DNA from: a bacterium
Lineage (GTDB): Bacteria > Patescibacteriota > Minisyncoccia > Phycocordibacterales > UBA9973
DNA: 64,000 bases
Assembly (NCBI GenBank): GCA_027484965.1
Contig: JAIXRY010000006.1
Span: 1,738 to 65,737 of the forward strand
Direction of reading: 5' to 3'
Part shown: in pieces, positions 12,311 to 53,008 of the stretch
How positions within the stretch are numbered: position 1 is the stretch's first letter
Layout: each line of letters begins with the position of its first letter
The notes under the pieces: generated by a model
Database searches by the model: none
Seen by the model: the letters and a program-made list of their open reading frames with translations, nothing else
Told to the model about the DNA's origin: nothing
Program-made: the position numbers and the translations under genes

Positions 12311-13360
12311 TTATTCATCATCACTATCTATTTTATCCAAAAGGATTGTTTCGAGTTCTGGAGACGCGCCTGTTATGCGGGTCACATCCTTGTCTATCTT
12401 CTTGAGTTCTTTTCCTGAACTATTGTAATGATTTATCACTGTACCAAGACTTCCACCTAATTTTTTGTGATATTCTTCATACACTTTTAGATGTTTTCCG
12501 AGTTCTTCGACGCGCTTCACGATATCTTTTGCGCTTTCTTCTATCTGCATCGCTTTCAGACCTTGGAGGACTGTTTGGAGATATGCGAGGAATGAAGTAG
12601 GAGATACGATGATCACTTTGTATTTACCAGCGGCGCGTTGAATCAGATTTTCTGTGTCTTCTGTGACTGCGCCGATTTTGTTTACGAGTAAGTCGTAATA
12701 TATTGCTTCATGAGGAATGAACATAAATGCGAAGTCCATTGTGTTGTCGTTTGGCTTTATATATTTTGAAGTTTCTACAATTCTATTTTTCAAATCGTTT
12801 AAGAATATTTTTTCGAAACGTTCTTTTTCGGCAGGGTCATTTGTCTCTGTAATACGATTATAATTCTCGAGAGAGAATTTTGAATCGATAGGGATAATCT
12901 TGTCTTTGACGAAAACTACAGCATCAACAATGTTTCCATCTGGAAAAGTGTATTGCATTTGATAGCTTCCAGTAGGGAGGACATTTTTTAAAAGAGTTTC
13001 GAGATAATATTCACCCAAGATTCCGCGTTGCTTTGGATTTTTCAAGATGTCTTGGAGGTTTTTGAGTTGGTCTGCGAATGAGACTACTTGTTTGTTGGTC
13101 TCGTCGAGACGGGTGAGCTTCTCTGTAATATCACGAATGAGCTTCTGAGATTCTGTGGCTTGGGTTATATTGCTTTTGTTATTCTCACCAATTTTCTCGT
13201 CTACGACACGAGAGAGTTCTTGCATTTGAGAAAGGAGGAGTTGAAGACCTGTATTGTCCTCCTTAACTTCTGGTTTTTTGGAGATTTTTGAGAGAGTTAT
13301 ACTTACAAAAACTATAAGTATAATAACGAGAATTGAGAGAATTATAAGGATTGTTGTCAT
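12311..13360 (-). CDS. rmuC: DNA recombination protein RmuC
   Basis: N-terminal TM helix, a coiled-coil, then RmuC-domain motifs (QRGILGEYYLETLL, IDSKFS, FMFIPHE, IVSPTSFLAYL). Confidence 0.75.
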   Translation of the reverse strand: MTTILIILSILVIILIVFVSITLSKISKKPEVKEDNTGLQLLLSQMQELSRVVDEKIGENNKSNITQATESQKLIRDITEKLTRLDETNKQVVSFADQLKNLQDILKNPKQRGILGEYYLETLLKNVLPTGSYQMQYTFPDGNIVDAVVFVKDKIIPIDSKFSLENYNRITETNDPAEKERFEKIFLNDLKNRIVETSKYIKPNDNTMDFAFMFIPHEAIYYDLLVNKIGAVTEDTENLIQRAAGKYKVIIVSPTSFLAYLQTVLQGLKAMQIEESAKDIVKRVEELGKHLKVYEEYHKKLGGSLGTVINHYNSSGKELKKIDKDVTRITGASPELETILLDKIDSDDE

Positions 13361-13471: not shown

Positions 13472-13753
13472 ATTTTTAGTTAAGTTCTTTGAGTATTCAC
13501 CTGAATCGCGAACAGGTGATAGTGAAAGCTCAGTTTTTATTTTATATAGAAATTCTGATTAGTGTTGATACTTTATCAGCGGGGTTGTGAAAAATCAGTT
13601 ATCAGAATAATTTCTTTTGGGGTTTGATATATTTCAAATTTATTCTAAAACTCCAAGTAATAAGTAAAGAGCGGATTTTTTATTTAATGAATATCTGCTG
13701 GTATTTTTACCACTTGTGAAAGCATGCAAAAAACTGTCTTAAAGAATTTACTG

Positions 13754-13773
13754 CCACGAACTTATGTTCGTGG
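13754..13773. promoter_or_regulatory. putative LexA/SOS box: 20-bp palindrome CCACGAAC-TTAT-GTTCGTGG (GAAC-N4-GTTC class)
   Basis: Perfect 8-bp arms around a 4-bp spacer, of the same GAAC-N4-GTTC type as the box in the lexA promoter at 52637-52652. Only these two instances occur in the whole window. The ATG of the 71-aa ORF at 13764 lies inside it. Confidence 0.5.
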
Positions 13774-13994
13774 CTTCTTTGTTTTTATTTGCAAAATTAA
13801 TTTTAAATGGTACTCTTTGGTTAGATTACTACTTACAATCGTCCGAACATAAAGGAAACCAAATTCTCTTGAATTGGTTTCGGAAAAAACATCACGGAAA
13901 AGATATGAGTAATAGATTATGTATACCCATAAAAAATGTTTATCATTTTTTCATAGGGTTGTTCTTAATAAAATTTTAAAATACTTGAATTGCA

Positions 13995-14198
13995 GAACTG
14001 AAACATCTAAGTACGCAAATTAAATTCAAGTAAATTCTATGAGTAGTTGCGAGCGAAAGTAGAATAGCCCAAACCATAAAAAATTTTACGATGCGAAACT
14101 ATTTTATGGGGTTGTAGGACTCCCTTGGGAGTATCCTGAGTAATACGAAGTCGGAGATGCTTTGTGTGAATCTGCCGGCACCATCCGGTAAGGCTAAT
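13995..14198 (+). rRNA. orphan fragment of 23S rRNA domain I (E. coli positions ~190-445), probably a pseudogene or derived ncRNA
   Basis: Contains the universal 23S motifs GAACTGAAACATCTAAGTA, AGTAGTTGCGAGCGAAAGTAG (compare AGTAGCGGCGAGCGAA), AGCCCAAACC, GGGGTTGTAGGAC, ATCCTGAGTA and CACCATCCGGTAAGGCTAA. Homology stops abruptly and is followed by a terminator. A weak, degenerate rRNA-like extension may run upstream to ~13930 (CATAGGGT...). Confidence 0.65.
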
Positions 14199-14214
14199 TT
14201 TGAAATTTTTTAAA

Positions 14215-14297: not shown

Positions 14298-16388
14298 ATG
14301 GCTAAAGAATCAATATTTAAATTAAAGAGTAATTACAAGCCAGATGGTGACCAGCCGGTCGCTATTTCAGAGCTTGTAAAAGGGATAGAAAAGGGTTTAC
14401 AAAAACAAACACTTCTTGGTGCTACTGGTACAGGTAAGACATTTACTGTGGCGAATGTTATACAAGAAATAAATAAACCTGCACTCATTATTGCTCACAA
14501 CAAAACTCTCGCAGCTCAGCTTGCTCAAGAATTTCGTGAATTTTTCCCTGATGCTGCTGTACACTATTTCGTATCATACTATGACTATTATCAGCCAGAG
14601 GCATATATGCCAGCGTCTGATACATATATTGAAAAAGATGCACAAATCAACAAAGAGATTGACCGTCTTCGTCATGCGACAACTCAAGCACTCCTTACAC
14701 GTAAAGATGTGATTATTGTTGCTTCTGTATCGTGTATATACGGTCTCGGTAGTCCAAAGGAGTACGAAAGTGTAAATCTAAAAATTGAAAAAGGAATGAA
14801 GATAGAGAGAAATGAATTGATGAAAAGATTGATTGAAATTCATTTCACTCGCACACAAGCAGATCTTTCGCCTGCACAATTTCGTGTGATTGGTAATAGA
14901 GTAGAGCTTATGCCTGTGTCTGAGACTATTATGTATCAGATAAATCTAAAAGGTGATAAAGTTGATTCTATTATAGCTATTGATGCTGTATCTTCTACAA
15001 TCATAAAAGATTGCGAACATCTTTTTGTTTTCCCTGCGAAGCACTTCATTACAGCTGATGATAAAAAAGAAAAAGCAATAAAAGATATCAAAAAAGAATT
15101 GGATGCCCAATTGAAATTTTTTGAAAAAGAAGGGAAGCTTCTTGAAGCTGAAAGAATAAAAAGAAGAACAAATTATGATCTCGCCATGATACGTGAAGTC
15201 GGATATTGTAATGGTATCGAGAACTATTCTCGTGTCTTATCTGGCAAAAAAGAAGGTGAACCACCAGAAACTCTTTTGTCATATTTTCCTCACGACAAAA
15301 AAGGTAATCCAGAATTTATAACATTTATAGATGAATCACACGTAACAATTCCACAACTCCAAGGAATGTATGCAGGAGACGCTTCTCGTAAGAAGACTCT
15401 TGTTGATTTTGGATTTCGTCTTCCGTCAGCAAAAGATAACAGACCTCTAAAATATCCAGAATTCGCAGATAGAATAGGGCAGGTAATATATGTGTCAGCA
15501 ACTCCAAGTGCTTATGAAAAAGAAGAGAGTTCTAAAATTGTAGAGCAAATTATTCGTCCGACAGGTCTTATTGATCCAGAAATACTTATTAAGCCAGTTA
15601 CTCCAAGTAGTGAATATATAGGACAAGTGCAAGATTTTATTCTTGAAACAGAGAAGACTATAAAGAAAGGTTTTCGTGTGCTTGCGACTACTCTCACAAA
15701 GAAAATGGCTGAAGACTTGTCTGTATACCTAAAAGACAGAGGAATAAAAGCAGAGTATCTTCATAGTGAAATCAAGACTATTGAACGTATTCAAATTCTT
15801 ACACAATTTCGTAAGGGAGACTTCGATGTGCTTGTAGGTGTGAACCTCCTTCGTGAGGGCTTGGACTTACCAGAGGTTGCTTTGATTGGAATTCTCGATG
15901 CTGACAAAGAAGGCTTCCTTCGTTCTGAAACATCTCTCATTCAGACAATTGGACGTGCTGCTCGTAATTCTGAAGGGCGAGTAATTCTCTATGCAGATAA
16001 GATGACAGGCTCACTTGAACGTGCAATAGGTGAGACAACACGTCGTCGCAATATTCAGCTTGCGTATAATAAAAAGCATGGAATTACACCAAAGACCATT
16101 CTGAAAAAAATTAATGATATTACAGAAGCTTTTGAATCTACTCACGGCAAAGCAGTGAACGCTGAACTTGCTCTTGATATAGAATTATTTAAAAATACTC
16201 TTTCAAAAGAAGGAAAGAAAGGTAATCTTGCAAAACTTTCTGATGAAGAACGTGAAGGTTTAGTATATGACAAGATTATAAAAATAAAGGAGAAGGCTAT
16301 GAAAGACGCGGTGAAAGCTCTAGATTTCGAGACTGCTGCAATATTGCGTGACGAGATAGGAGTACTTCTTGATAGAAAGTCAAAATAA
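14298..16388 (+). CDS. uvrB: excinuclease ABC subunit B
   Basis: Helicase motifs (GATGTGKTFT, DESH), the beta-hairpin region and a C-terminal UvrB/UvrC interaction domain (FETAAILRDEI); 696 aa. Confidence 0.9.
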   Translation: MAKESIFKLKSNYKPDGDQPVAISELVKGIEKGLQKQTLLGATGTGKTFTVANVIQEINKPALIIAHNKTLAAQLAQEFREFFPDAAVHYFVSYYDYYQPEAYMPASDTYIEKDAQINKEIDRLRHATTQALLTRKDVIIVASVSCIYGLGSPKEYESVNLKIEKGMKIERNELMKRLIEIHFTRTQADLSPAQFRVIGNRVELMPVSETIMYQINLKGDKVDSIIAIDAVSSTIIKDCEHLFVFPAKHFITADDKKEKAIKDIKKELDAQLKFFEKEGKLLEAERIKRRTNYDLAMIREVGYCNGIENYSRVLSGKKEGEPPETLLSYFPHDKKGNPEFITFIDESHVTIPQLQGMYAGDASRKKTLVDFGFRLPSAKDNRPLKYPEFADRIGQVIYVSATPSAYEKEESSKIVEQIIRPTGLIDPEILIKPVTPSSEYIGQVQDFILETEKTIKKGFRVLATTLTKKMAEDLSVYLKDRGIKAEYLHSEIKTIERIQILTQFRKGDFDVLVGVNLLREGLDLPEVALIGILDADKEGFLRSETSLIQTIGRAARNSEGRVILYADKMTGSLERAIGETTRRRNIQLAYNKKHGITPKTILKKINDITEAFESTHGKAVNAELALDIELFKNTLSKEGKKGNLAKLSDEEREGLVYDKIIKIKEKAMKDAVKALDFETAAILRDEIGVLLDRKSK

Positions 16389-50873: not shown

Positions 50874-51452
50874 ATGGAACTAGATTTAGAAAAAAGAAAA
50901 AGATTGGCAGAAGAGTTAAAAAATTTAAAATTTAACAAAATTTCAGAAATAATTTGGTTTGATCAGTATTACGATGAGATTATTAATACTTTGAACAATA
51001 TTTTGTTTAATGAAAAAATTGAACAAGAAATAAAGGAAATTTTTGAAAAAATATCAGACATGCTTTTAGCCCCGATTATAATAGACGAGTTTGAAGAAAA
51101 AGAGAGGGATTTGTTGAAAAAAGAAATGAGGGAAAAAATTAGATCAATAAATCCAGAACTTTTAAAAATTCACGAACTTAATCTTCTTATGGCTTCTAAC
51201 TTGAGTAATGTGCTTTCACAGGCTGAAGTATTCGAAGTTTATTTTGATTTTGAAATGCCAAACGAATTAGAAAATCAGTACAAAAAAGCAACTCTTATTT
51301 TTTCTGGCGAAGTTGGAAATGCGCAAGCAAGAAATTATGTCGATAATAAAAAAGATATCGAAAGGATCGAAATTGCCAAAGAAGTATTTGTTTTTGGAAA
51401 AAATTATTTTTTTTATCTAGCTAATCATCTAAACAAAGAAACCACCTCCTAA
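50874..51452 (+). CDS. hypothetical protein
   Basis: 192 aa, Glu/Lys-rich. A terminator hairpin (AACCAC...GTGGTT + T-run) overlaps the stop. Confidence 0.4.
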   Translation: MELDLEKRKRLAEELKNLKFNKISEIIWFDQYYDEIINTLNNILFNEKIEQEIKEIFEKISDMLLAPIIIDEFEEKERDLLKKEMREKIRSINPELLKIHELNLLMASNLSNVLSQAEVFEVYFDFEMPNELENQYKKATLIFSGEVGNAQARNYVDNKKDIERIEIAKEVFVFGKNYFFYLANHLNKETTS

Positions 51453-51512
51453 ATTAAGGATAGTGGTTTTTATTTTTTTGTAGTCTTATTCTTTTATCTA
51501 TACTTATTAAGT

Positions 51513-51818
51513 TTATCTACCGTCATCTCCTTTTGCAATAATTTTTTTATCAAAACCTCCTCTTTTCTCTTTCTTCTCTAGTCTGATTTCTTCAACATTA
51601 GAAAATTCCGGTAGTGTTTTTATTGCTTCTATGACTTCCATTATATCTGCCAATTCTTCATTACTCTGATCACTTATAAATTCATTTACTTCTTCTTCAA
51701 GTTTGATAATGAGTTCATTTCTAAATTCAGTTTCGTCGGCAGTATAAATTTCATAGGCTATACCTTTTTCATCTAATATTTCTGGGATTTTATCTCTAAC
51801 CAATTTTTTGTAGTGCAT
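51513..51818 (-). CDS. MazG/HisE-like all-alpha NTP pyrophosphohydrolase (putative house-cleaning enzyme), last gene of the lexA operon
   Basis: N-terminal KLVRDKIPEI plus acidic EExxE/EELADIMEVIEAI clusters typical of the MazG-like fold. Starts 10 nt after the lexA stop. Confidence 0.5.
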   Translation of the reverse strand: MHYKKLVRDKIPEILDEKGIAYEIYTADETEFRNELIIKLEEEVNEFISDQSNEELADIMEVIEAIKTLPEFSNVEEIRLEKKEKRGGFDKKIIAKGDDGR

Positions 51819-51828
51819 ATGATTAAAT

Positions 51829-52398
51829 TTAGTATTTTCGAATAACAGCTTTTACTATTGCTGTAATGCGAAGATATTGTTCTGGATAAATATTTTTGAA
51901 GTTTTTGTTTGCTGGTTCAAGCCATACCTTACCACCTTCTTTTCGGAAATATTTCATTGTAGATTCTCCGTCTATATCTGCAATAACAATATCTCCATCT
52001 TTTGCGACTTCTGTTTTCTCGACTAGGACCATGTCCCCGTCAGCAATATGAGCGTCTATCATAGACTCCCCATCCACTTTCAATAGGAATGAATTAGCCT
52101 TCTTTGATGTCGTTAGATATGAGTCTATATTAATAGTGTTCAATTCCACTTCCTCTGCATTACTTGGAAATCCTGCTTTGATTGATCCTAAAAGTGGAAT
52201 TTCATTAAAAGATTTTTCTGCTATTAATCTTCCTAAATGATCTTTTGAAACAAAACCTGCATCAATAAACTTTTCCACAAGACGAGCAACTGCATTCTTT
52301 GATTTAAAACCAAACAGAGCCATCATCTCTGTGTATGTGGGCATTCTGTTTTCTTTTTCGTGAAAGTATATTAATTTTTGTTTGTAGTTTTGTTCCAT
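51829..52398 (-). CDS. lexA: LexA repressor (wHTH plus S24 peptidase)
   Basis: N-terminal wHTH (MPTYTEMMALFGFKSKNAVARLVEKFIDAGFV), an Ala-Gly cleavage site (SIKAGFP), catalytic Ser (VDGESM) and Lys (AIVKAVIRK). Confidence 0.85.
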   Translation of the reverse strand: MEQNYKQKLIYFHEKENRMPTYTEMMALFGFKSKNAVARLVEKFIDAGFVSKDHLGRLIAEKSFNEIPLLGSIKAGFPSNAEEVELNTINIDSYLTTSKKANSFLLKVDGESMIDAHIADGDMVLVEKTEVAKDGDIVIADIDGESTMKYFRKEGGKVWLEPANKNFKNIYPEQYLRITAIVKAVIRKY

Positions 52399-52401
52399 GA
52401 A

Positions 52402-52596
52402 TTAAAAAAGTGGAAGCATGTGAAAGAATTTAGTAAATATATTTCCACTTGAGTGTTGGATTAATTTTTTGCGAAGTAGTTTGTGATCACGTGCTTCTTT
52501 TGCATATTCTTCACCTGAGAGAATCTTCATATCAATTTTTTTGTTTATGTTGTGAATTTCTCTTTCTATGATTTTTAGATATTGTTCTTTACTCAT
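52402..52596 (-). CDS. small hypothetical protein, first gene of the lexA operon
   Basis: 64 aa; stop is 3 nt before the lexA start; sits directly downstream of the SOS-box promoter. Confidence 0.45.
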   Translation of the reverse strand: MSKEQYLKIIEREIHNINKKIDMKILSGEEYAKEARDHKLLRKKLIQHSSGNIFTKFFHMLPLF

Positions 52597-52629
52597 AATG
52601 CTTAAATATTATTATCCTGCTATGTATTT

Positions 52630-52658
52630 ATTATAAGTGAACGCTCGTTCACACGCAA
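52630..52658 (-). promoter_or_regulatory. SOS-regulated promoter: -35 TTGCGT (52653-52658), -10 TATAAT (52630-52635), with LexA box GTGAACGAGCGTTCAC (52637-52652) filling the 17-bp spacer
   Basis: Reading the minus strand: TTGCGT-GTGAACGAGCGTTCACT-TATAAT, 34 nt upstream of the small-ORF ATG. The box is a GAAC-N4-GTTC palindrome (Cheo-box class). Confidence 0.7.
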
Positions 52659-52756
52659 ATAAATTCCTGTGGATAAGTTATAAAAATAATCATTAAGTAA
52701 ATATAAATTGACAAAATATATTAAATATTTATAATGTATTTAAATTTAATAATATT

Positions 52757-53008
52757 ATGTCACAAATAGAAACGACTCCAAACGAAAAATTCTCTCTACT
52801 TAAAGAAATTGTTTCTAGAGTAAAAGATGAAAATTCTTTGATTAAAGACCCTGATATTATAAAAAAAAGTATTGAAGAGCTTAGGGTTGTTAAGCTTGGA
52901 TTAAAAAATAAAAGCGCTTCAGCTTTCTATTCTGATATGAAGAAGATAATAGCTGAAAAGAAAAAAGATGGAGAAATACTTTTTCCATCAAAAAAGCCCT
53001 CAAATTGA
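52757..53008 (+). CDS. hypothetical protein (divergent from the lexA operon)
   Basis: 83-aa ORF, about 105 nt from the LexA box on the other side. Confidence 0.4.
   Translation: MSQIETTPNEKFSLLKEIVSRVKDENSLIKDPDIIKKSIEELRVVKLGLKNKSASAFYSDMKKIIAEKKKDGEILFPSKKPSN

Follow-up and report, generated by a model that had tools for sequence, protein, structure and literature searches.

We asked what a LexA-controlled operon encodes in a genome of the candidate phyla radiation (CPR), and which of its genes belong to that control wherever the operon occurs. The locus lies in a 64-kb stretch of an AT-rich Patescibacteria (CPR) genome, hereafter the window, and comprises on the minus strand a small open reading frame (ORF) of 64 amino acids, lexA, and a gene for a MazG-like protein of 101 residues. 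An initial annotation of the window had read these genes as an SOS operon in which a house-cleaning nucleotide pyrophosphatase was placed under LexA. The answer that we reached, and that we regard as probable, is an autoregulated lexA operon with a conserved unit that runs from the 9-mer TTATCCACA, over ~9 nucleotides (nt), to the -35 hexamer, the operator, the -10 hexamer, the small protein and lexA, with the MazG-like gene as a passenger.

For comparison, the family of the 64-residue protein was searched in contigs representing one genome per species, which gave 138 relatives, and 80 loci were taken (L001-L080). These are related Paceibacteria/Nomurabacteria loci with ~4 kb of flank on either side of the operon per genome, and the related flanking DNA scanned for motifs amounted to 550 kb in total. 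Further loci came from close relatives (L161-L166), from distant members of the 64-residue family (L167-L170) and from independent assemblies (L171-L173). Homologs of the 64- and 101-residue proteins were found in metagenome-assembled genomes (MAGs) labelled Candidatus Paceibacterota, Nomurabacteria, Minisyncoccia or Parcubacteria. Because the independent assemblies share the identical operon arrangement, an assembly artefact was ruled out.

The predicted LexA operator and its operon

The 189-residue product of the second gene (lexA, 51829..52398, minus strand) matched NCBIfam TIGR00498 with 127.5 bits (cut-off 110.95), covering residues 14-188, and Pfam Peptidase_S24 (PF00717) with E = 5.4e-27. 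Its best match in the PDB was the LexA chain 3K2Z (3.8e-23), in an alignment that begins at residue 12, and Pfam LexA_DNA_bind scored E = 0.27. Ala75-Gly76, Ser112 and Lys149 align with the segments VAAGEP, SGMSM and TVKRL of the 202-residue LexA chains of the PDB, and chain 3K2Z agrees. We take these 202-residue chains to be E. coli LexA, in which the three segments presumably correspond to A84-G85, S119 and K156. Judged by these matches, the lexA product is a protein with a putative winged helix-turn-helix (wHTH) and an S24 autoprotease domain, a predicted cleavage site at Ala75-Gly76 and a Ser112/Lys149 dyad. The LexA of the initial annotation, with its intact Ala-Gly site and Ser/Lys dyad, is thus borne out by both family models and by the alignment to solved LexA structures.

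Upstream of the small ORF, on the minus strand, a -35 hexamer TTGCGT (52653..52658) and a -10 hexamer TATAAT (52630..52635) were read from the sequence. They are separated by a 17-nt spacer (52636..52652), the first 16 nt of which form the palindrome GTGAACGAGCGTTCAC. This palindrome (52637..52652, no strand assigned), GTGAACG-NN-CGTTCAC with a 7+2+7 geometry, is the putative LexA operator. A further 33 nt (52597..52629, minus strand), which would hold the transcription start and the 5' leader, lead from the -10 hexamer to the ATG at 52596. Both hexamers and the 17-nt spacer are as first annotated; the distance from TATAAT to the ATG, given there as 34 nt, is 33 nt. When the window and 79 related loci were tallied, the -35 hexamer was TTGACA or TTGACT in most relatives (54 and 17, with TTGACG in 4 and TTGCGT in 2), and the -10 hexamer was mostly TATACT (69, with TATAAT in 9). 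The spacer measured 17 nt in 62 cases and 18 nt in 18.

The operon begins with the small ORF (52402..52596, minus strand), which encodes a conserved protein of unknown function. lexA starts 3 nt past its stop in the same frame, and the 101-residue ORF (51513..51818, minus strand) starts 10 nt past the lexA stop; the ORF coordinates confirm the gene order and the 10-nt gap described earlier. A hairpin with a T-rich tail (51439..51469, minus strand; RNA fold -15.6 kcal/mol, z = -2.83 versus shuffles) is a likely intrinsic terminator and overlaps the 3' end of a convergent 192-residue ORF. From this layout, the small ORF, lexA and the 101-residue gene appear to lie on one transcript ending at the hairpin.

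The exact form GTGAACG-NN-CGTTCAC, with its 14 specified bases, has a single copy in the window and none in any of 100 shuffles, and the only window site within two mismatches of GTGAAC-N4-GTTCAC is the same promoter palindrome. Exact GTGAAC-N4-GTTCAC stands between a TTGAC(A/T) -35 and a TATACT or TATAAT -10 in 79 of the 80 related loci, and the single locus without it has just 48 nt of upstream sequence. Each related locus carries exactly one copy, and no operator was found outside this promoter in the 550 kb of related flanking DNA; the window likewise holds no second operator, including upstream of uvrB. The distant family loci L167-L170 keep the same promoter-operator design. Relatives differ in how far the ATG lies from the operator (15 to 153 nt); what is conserved is therefore the promoter-operator module rather than the leader. 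Because the operator keeps the same promoter position in 79/80 related loci, a LexA autorepression site of the GAAC-N4-GTTC class, filling the promoter spacer, is well supported by sequence comparison. Two earlier proposals, a Bacillus-type LexA box in the promoter spacer and autoregulation of the operon by LexA, therefore stand, with the uniqueness of the site in the window and a geometry conserved in related species and distant relatives behind them. The motif scan proposed at the time for the full genome was carried out on the window and the related flanks, where it returned one site per locus, at the lexA-operon promoter.

A second GAAC-N4-GTTC core in the window, at 13758, was rejected as an operator; its two arms pair into a GC hairpin stem ahead of a T-run, an arrangement that is terminator-like. 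The hairpin (13751-13790) reads GCCACGAAC-ttat-GTTCGTGGC and is followed by TTCTTTGTTTTT, and uvrB (14298-16388), 500 nt downstream of it, has no GTGAACG-NN-CGTTCAC operator. A scan of viral contigs for a -35 hexamer plus operator gave one match, which lay within a phage structural gene and was dismissed as a chance match.

LexA self-repression through a GAAC-N4-GTTC (Cheo-type) box is textbook knowledge for Firmicutes, Actinobacteria and Thermotogae. The CPR locus resembles these systems in the palindromic GAAC-N4-GTTC over the lexA promoter, in the S24 domain with Ala-Gly and Ser/Lys and the putative wHTH, and in the predicted repression of the regulator's own gene. It differs from them in that the arms are extended to GTGAACG/CGTTCAC and a single operator fills the spacer in ~80 species, and in that lexA comes second in the operon, after a conserved small gene, with a DnaA-type box fixed upstream. 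The LexA box and the autoregulation are a known kind of system; what goes beyond it is the family of small proteins linked to lexA, together with the DnaA-type box fixed at the promoter. Our literature search turned up no paper joining CPR bacteria with LexA and the SOS response, and Sanchez-Osuna, Barbe and Erill are said to have analysed the SOS network of Patescibacteria in 2017 (pmid 28618189, cited in PMC8565304).

In the regulatory cycle that we propose from established LexA biology, a LexA dimer bound to the promoter spacer would exclude RNA polymerase. Upon DNA damage, RecA on single-stranded DNA would trigger LexA self-cleavage at Ala75-Gly76 via Ser112 and Lys149, which would lift repression and allow the operon to be transcribed. 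Newly made LexA would then shut the operon off and close the loop.

The constant partner of lexA

In all 80 related loci, lexA lies immediately downstream of the small ORF on the same strand. The gap between the two is at most 27 nt in 67 of 78 complete pairs; an 8-nt overlap occurs in 13, and many are separated by 0-3 nt. All five distant family members that were examined adjoin a Peptidase_S24 gene, with the gene order reversed in one (the small gene is downstream of lexA) and an extra ORF in between in another. Overall, the 64-residue family adjoins lexA in 85/85 loci tested, and the invariant partner of lexA is the small ORF, not the MazG-like gene. The intervening ORF (L170:3203-3385) encodes 60 residues, with the sequence MTTITPFQTLLQQELYRLHTLQ...SYLSLVRHMLSL, and may be a diverged duplicate of the small protein.

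Close homologs of the 64-residue protein numbered 39, with lengths of 64-102 residues, nearly all 64-70. An exhaustive profile search at E<=1e-3 extended the family to 333 cluster-50 representatives. Nearly all of these are stand-alone proteins of ~60-95 residues; two reach 133-136 residues by N-terminal extension, and no domain fusion, LexA included, was seen among the 333. Within the first 41 positions, 17 residues are invariant, many of them polar. AlphaFold2 predicted a helical hairpin (helices 3-27 and 32-49, turn at Gly28) with a predicted local distance difference test (pLDDT) score of ~98 in the core and 85.7 overall, the tail being of low confidence. This C-terminal tail, of 18 residues, is Phe-rich and basic (median net charge +3.5), and the hairpin is charged. 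The protein had no match in Pfam, NCBIfam, PHROGs, PADLOC or the PDB sequence profile, and a Foldseek comparison of the model with PDB and viral models gave generic helical hairpins only, for example seryl-tRNA-synthetase arms. The homology and structure check once suggested for this protein has thus yielded a confident hairpin model and no library match. The underlying idea, that the 64-residue protein is a candidate new SOS component, has held up in that a real conserved protein is encoded beside lexA throughout.

As the first cistron, tightly coupled to the lexA start codon, the small ORF might be a mere leader or translational-coupling device for lexA, with a functionless product. Its codon-position entropies (0.60, 0.38 and 1.27 at positions 1, 2 and 3) indicate that it is protein-coding and under purifying selection, and the third-position value of 1.27 versus 0.38 at second positions marks this selection as strong. 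The 17 invariant residues and the confidently predicted fold also speak against a leader, as do the lineage in which the gene is downstream of lexA and the one in which an extra ORF intervenes. We consider this explanation very improbable.

Since no second operator was found in the window or in the 550 kb of flanks, the circuit would have, LexA apart, the small protein as its single universal output. Quite possibly, though we would not call it probable, the 64-residue protein is the main conserved output of a small SOS circuit, a checkpoint-type effector. On this view, some conserved protein of the cell cycle or of DNA metabolism would be bound by the conserved polar face of the hairpin, and the basic aromatic tail would tether the effector to the membrane or mark it for degradation.

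In the main alternative role, the 64-residue protein would act on LexA, or on the RecA-LexA reaction, as a stoichiometric partner or modulator, be it a co-repressor, a stabiliser on DNA or a modulator of self-cleavage. Phage GIL01 gp7, Acinetobacter DdrR and E. coli DinI are analogues among LexA/RecA modulators. The adjacency to lexA, strict in every locus although the surrounding gene order varies, would suit such a partner, and reading frames that often overlap or touch suggest translational coupling and hence a fixed production ratio. The conserved polar surface (Q5, K8, E13, N18, D22, K24, E34, H38 and K39) fits binding to a conserved partner, and basal co-expression with LexA would be harmless for such a protein. 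However, the 333 representatives include no fusion of the small protein to LexA, and if LexA controls little else, a circuit whose sole conserved output modulates LexA has no evident purpose. Adjacency itself does not discriminate between the two roles, as Gram-positive SOS effectors also adjoin lexA (yneA-yneB-ynzC, PMC3896406). We view a LexA or RecA-LexA partner as rather unlikely, and return to the checkpoint-type effector.

The closest functional analogue of the 64-residue protein known to us is B. subtilis YnzC (DUF896/UPF0291, PF05979; PDB 2HEP, 3BHP, 2JVD), a small product of yneA-yneB-ynzC, an operon next to lexA that is induced in the SOS response (PMC3896406, PMC4143570). In B. subtilis the yneA operon is divergent from lexA, whereas the CPR gene is predicted to be co-transcribed upstream of it. 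Membership of the 64-residue protein in the YnzC/DUF896 family was rejected: there was no Pfam match, the hhalign probability was 1.1%, and YnzC chains were absent from the Foldseek matches.

SulA, YneA, SosA, ChiZ, DivS and SidA are small LexA-repressed division inhibitors; several are unstable, and the Gram-positive ones typically lie beside lexA. The proposed effector would share with them that it is small, LexA-repressed and adjoins lexA. The 64-residue family differs in that it is far more conserved in sequence and in its apparent co-transcription with lexA. No SulA or LysM domain was found in the 64-residue protein by the Pfam search and no membrane-spanning hydrophobic stretch by eye, and the 18-residue tail is too short to cross a membrane.

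A DnaA-type box upstream of the promoter

The DnaA-box-like 9-mer TTATCCACA (52668..52676, minus strand) lies 9 nt upstream of the -35 hexamer, with a G on either side in most species, and the window has no other exact copy. Among 79 related loci, 72 carry it exactly, ending 14-16 nt ahead of the operator in 70 of these, and the other 7 have it with one mismatch (TTTTCCACA, TTATGCACA or TTATCCACC). The 550 kb of related DNA contain 76 exact copies, of which 72 are at the lexA-operon promoter. The box is also present in the distant loci L167, L169 and L170, at variable spacing.

We consider this 9-mer likely to be a high-affinity DnaA box. A relaxed form of the DnaA box is TTWTNCACA, and the tolerated variants TTTTCCACA, TTATGCACA and TTATACACA are known relaxed DnaA-box forms. 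In the Nomurabacteria MAG L054, the 184-nt dnaA-dnaN spacer (L054:1166-1349) holds tandem one-mismatch boxes, GTTATCCACTTATCAACAG, and besides the box at the lexA promoter these are the only boxes with at most one mismatch in the 8-kb locus. Their presence in this spacer indicates that the canonical DnaA-box type is used in this lineage. The 9-mer itself matches the published DnaA-box consensus at 9/9 positions (PMC8203912). The dnaA-dnaN pair of L054 happens to lie just 2.8 kb upstream of the small-ORF/lexA operon.

Alternatively, TTATCCACA may be bound by a different regulator, for which the small protein itself is a candidate, or may be an upstream element peculiar to promoters of this class. 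The concentration of exact copies at one promoter is the pattern expected of autoregulation by an operon-encoded factor, and the remaining exact copies precede, as AGTTATCCACA, other transcription units, next to clpP and to a comM-like gene. Yet the consensus that is matched in full is near-universal, and the variants seen are of the relaxed DnaA-box kind. The site is asymmetric and single, as expected for the monomeric domain IV of DnaA, and the small helical hairpin has no known DNA-reading motif. The only other boxes of L054 with at most one mismatch fall in the dnaA-dnaN spacer, and the clustering at one promoter loses force in a sample that consists of lexA surroundings, as other DnaA targets would mostly lie outside it. 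A site for a regulator other than DnaA thus seems unlikely to us, and we continue with the DnaA box.

In E. coli, uvrB and recN are co-regulated by DnaA and LexA, and DnaA also controls nrdAB and, in B. subtilis, the small checkpoint gene sda (PMC8203912). The CPR locus resembles this group (uvrB, recN, nrdAB, sda) in having the consensus TTATCCACA close to a promoter that bears a LexA site. It resembles sda in particular in that a small helical protein is encoded downstream of a DnaA box; the 64-residue protein had no Pfam match, the Sda family included. The locus differs from these genes in that the putative box is at lexA's own promoter and is conserved across a CPR class. By analogy with E. 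coli uvrB and recN, the promoter would combine DnaA (replication-initiator) status and LexA (DNA-damage) status. DnaA bound at about -53 to -45 would tune the lexA-operon promoter up or down with the state of replication initiation. A DnaA box fixed beside the LexA operator would make lexA's own promoter the point at which signals of replication status and of DNA damage meet. To our knowledge, such convergence of DnaA and LexA has been described for a few SOS genes of E. coli only, and our literature search turned up no paper tying a DnaA box to a lexA promoter.

When the parts are combined, the CPR SOS circuit may, throughout the class, have shrunk to a compact module in which one promoter reads a DnaA box and a LexA operator, and in which the previously undescribed 64-70-residue hairpin protein, the one output besides LexA that is universal, is a new SOS/cell-cycle checkpoint factor. 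We put this full combination forward tentatively, as something that could prove right but on present evidence probably goes too far. Were it true, the checkpoint factor would target division, the initiation of replication or the LexA-RecA switch, and would do so in organisms about whose cell-cycle control hardly anything is known.

Several points weigh against our explanation of the operon as a whole. The 64-residue protein showed no homology to any characterised protein in the libraries, by Foldseek or by hhalign, its function is something we only infer, and the amphipathicity of its tail is just modestly above that of shuffled controls. A gene co-transcribed with lexA would be expressed at a basal level, which is a difficulty for a toxic division inhibitor and suits a LexA partner better. 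Binding by LexA and by DnaA, like co-transcription, is deduced from sequence, and weak promoter-like matches occur inside the operon. The size of the regulon is judged from the 64 kb of the window and from ~4 kb of flank to either side of the operon in each genome. Finally, the exact 9-mer also occurs beside clpP (twice) and beside the comM-like gene in related genomes, and it could belong to the regulon of another regulator.

The 64-residue family, with its 333 representatives, no Pfam model and no structural relative, is a testable candidate for a missing SOS/cell-cycle component. Patescibacteria are mostly uncultured, and heterologous tests of the 64-residue protein and of the 60-bp promoter are among the few practical routes into CPR cell-cycle control.

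The other exact AGTTATCCACA copies are located at L013:7714, L016:4365 and L056:142. Two of them lie between clpP and a ~150-nt ORF-free unit that closes with a terminator hairpin and is possibly a small RNA gene; the gene after this unit resembles asnA or a tRNA-synthetase gene, as judged by eye from the translation. One copy lies 76 nt upstream of a comM/yifB-like gene. The three sites may be further targets of the same DNA-binding factor.

The MazG-like gene and neighbouring features

The third gene of the operon had been annotated as encoding a MazG/HisE-like pyrophosphohydrolase. The 504 homologs of its 101-residue product are named by their sources 'nucleoside triphosphate pyrophosphohydrolase' or 'house-cleaning noncanonical NTP pyrophosphatase (MazG superfamily)', NTP being nucleoside triphosphate. 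Six residues are invariant in the family: E42, E43 and E46 of the acidic motif EExxE, E55 and D58 of the acidic motif ExxD, and E61. AlphaFold2 predicted four helices (pLDDT 95.2), and Pfam PRA-PH was weakly matched by 12 of 40 family members (best 7.5e-4). In Foldseek, the top matches of the model were the MazG-like chains of DR2231 at E >=1.3 and a template modelling (TM) score of ~0.3; for DR2231, YpjD and 1VMG together the values were E>1 and TM ~0.3. The window protein had no Pfam match at E<=1, no NCBIfam match and no relevant PDB sequence or profile match, and an hhalign comparison of the family with three near-identical PF03819 proteins was uninformative (Template_Neff 1.0).

Like the all-alpha NTP pyrophosphohydrolases (MazG PF03819, HisE/PRA-PH PF01503, D. 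radiodurans DR2231, B. subtilis YpjD), the 101-residue protein is small, predicted to be all-helical, and invariant in EExxE and ExxD, and sister species carry a genuine PF03819 MazG in the same place. It differs from them in that it falls below the Pfam, NCBIfam and PDB thresholds and in that its two motifs are separated by 8 residues, whereas the canonical spacing is 12-28 residues. The 101-residue all-alpha protein is probably an NTP pyrophosphohydrolase of the MazG/HisE superfamily, of the COG4997 type. The annotated identity is thus plausible from homolog names, motifs and the four-helix model, and no library provided a direct match.

A search by tblastn found the 101-residue protein in none of L001-L080, and its gene follows lexA only in the window, in L161-L166 and in L171-L173. 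Among the closest relatives, the genes that follow lexA vary. L161-L166 have the small ORF, lexA, the 101-residue gene and a PF03819 MazG gene; L001, with proteins 92-95% identical, has the small ORF, lexA and the PF03819 MazG gene only; the window has the small ORF, lexA and the 101-residue gene only. This indicates differential loss of two pyrophosphohydrolase genes within one small lineage. The tandem pair occupies L161:4001-4689 and L164:4001-4695 in the sister species, its second gene being the PF03819 MazG of 111-113 residues, and the PF03819 MazG gene of L001 is at L001:4826-5158. Elsewhere, the gene downstream of lexA is a PIF1-like helicase gene (17 loci), a convergent HU gene (~10 loci), a convergent RNase-Y-like gene (9 loci), a DNA methylase gene or another. 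In the reverse direction, 80 metagenome loci of the 101-residue family were inspected, and none had lexA, the small ORF or the operator nearby.

These distributions bear on the coupling proposed initially, in which the operon is purpose-built to link the SOS response to sanitation of the deoxynucleoside triphosphate (dNTP) pool and the MazG-like pyrophosphatase is a core SOS function. The 10 nt between lexA and the 101-residue gene are too few to hold a promoter, and the likely terminator of the operon lies past this gene. The closest relatives carry one or two all-alpha NTP pyrophosphohydrolases, from two families, after lexA, and the acidic motifs are invariant. Across L161-L166 and L001, the SOS-pyrophosphatase link has thus been kept within the small lineage despite gene turnover. 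Against a core function, the 101-residue gene is absent after lexA in 80/80 small-protein loci, with a MazG-type gene of any kind (PF03819) in L001 only, and the reverse loci (0/80) give no sign of the association. The enzymatic role is itself predicted from sequence, and superfamily membership is supported indirectly. We judge a purpose-built SOS-sanitation operon unlikely, and a conserved SOS-MazG link was rejected on the 0/80 result. The coupling does not survive as an integral part of the system, since the gene follows lexA in the immediate lineage only.

Instead, we infer that the MazG-like enzyme is a lineage-specific passenger, which locally puts one or two nucleotide-cleaning pyrophosphatases under SOS control. 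The SOS-MazG link is local and variable and is not to be generalised as 'SOS controls dNTP sanitation'. Our literature search turned up no paper tying MazG to the SOS regulon.

In 17 of 74 related species (L002, L007-L009, L019, L036, L039, L042-L044, L047, L048, L052, L057, L063, L065 and L072), the gene after lexA lies on the same strand and encodes a PIF1-like helicase (PF05970 plus C-terminal HTH_40, ~555-586 residues; for example L002:4788-6458). It starts 14-130 nt past lexA, with a distance of 32 nt or less in 14 of these species, and its co-transcription with lexA is probable. The helicase would be a second, clade-specific cargo of the SOS operon.

On the other side of the promoter, lies a divergent gene for 83 residues (52757-53008, plus strand), for which a shared operator had been suggested. 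A perfect TTGACA-16-TATAAT promoter of its own is located at 52708-52735, at a distance of 56 bp from the operator, and the gene is present in the closest relatives only; in L161 and L164 an extra 84-residue gene lies between it and the operator. A shared operator is thus not upheld, and by its promoter and distribution the 83-residue gene is outside the lexA system. The convergent 192-residue ORF at the far end of the operon (window 50874-51452, plus strand) is kept in L001, L161 and L164 (191-211 residues) and had no Pfam or NCBIfam match.

Away from the operon, ~240 nt of the window (13971-14208, plus strand) match the 5' region of bacterial 23S rRNA (Rfam RF02541 positions 37-482, 106.6 bits, E 1.6e-32), and there is no other rRNA in the window at the Rfam gathering threshold. 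The piece lies in a 940-nt ORF-free gap between a minus-strand gene (12311-13360) and uvrB (14298-16388) and is followed by a hairpin and T-run. It could be part of a fragmented 23S rRNA or a relic.

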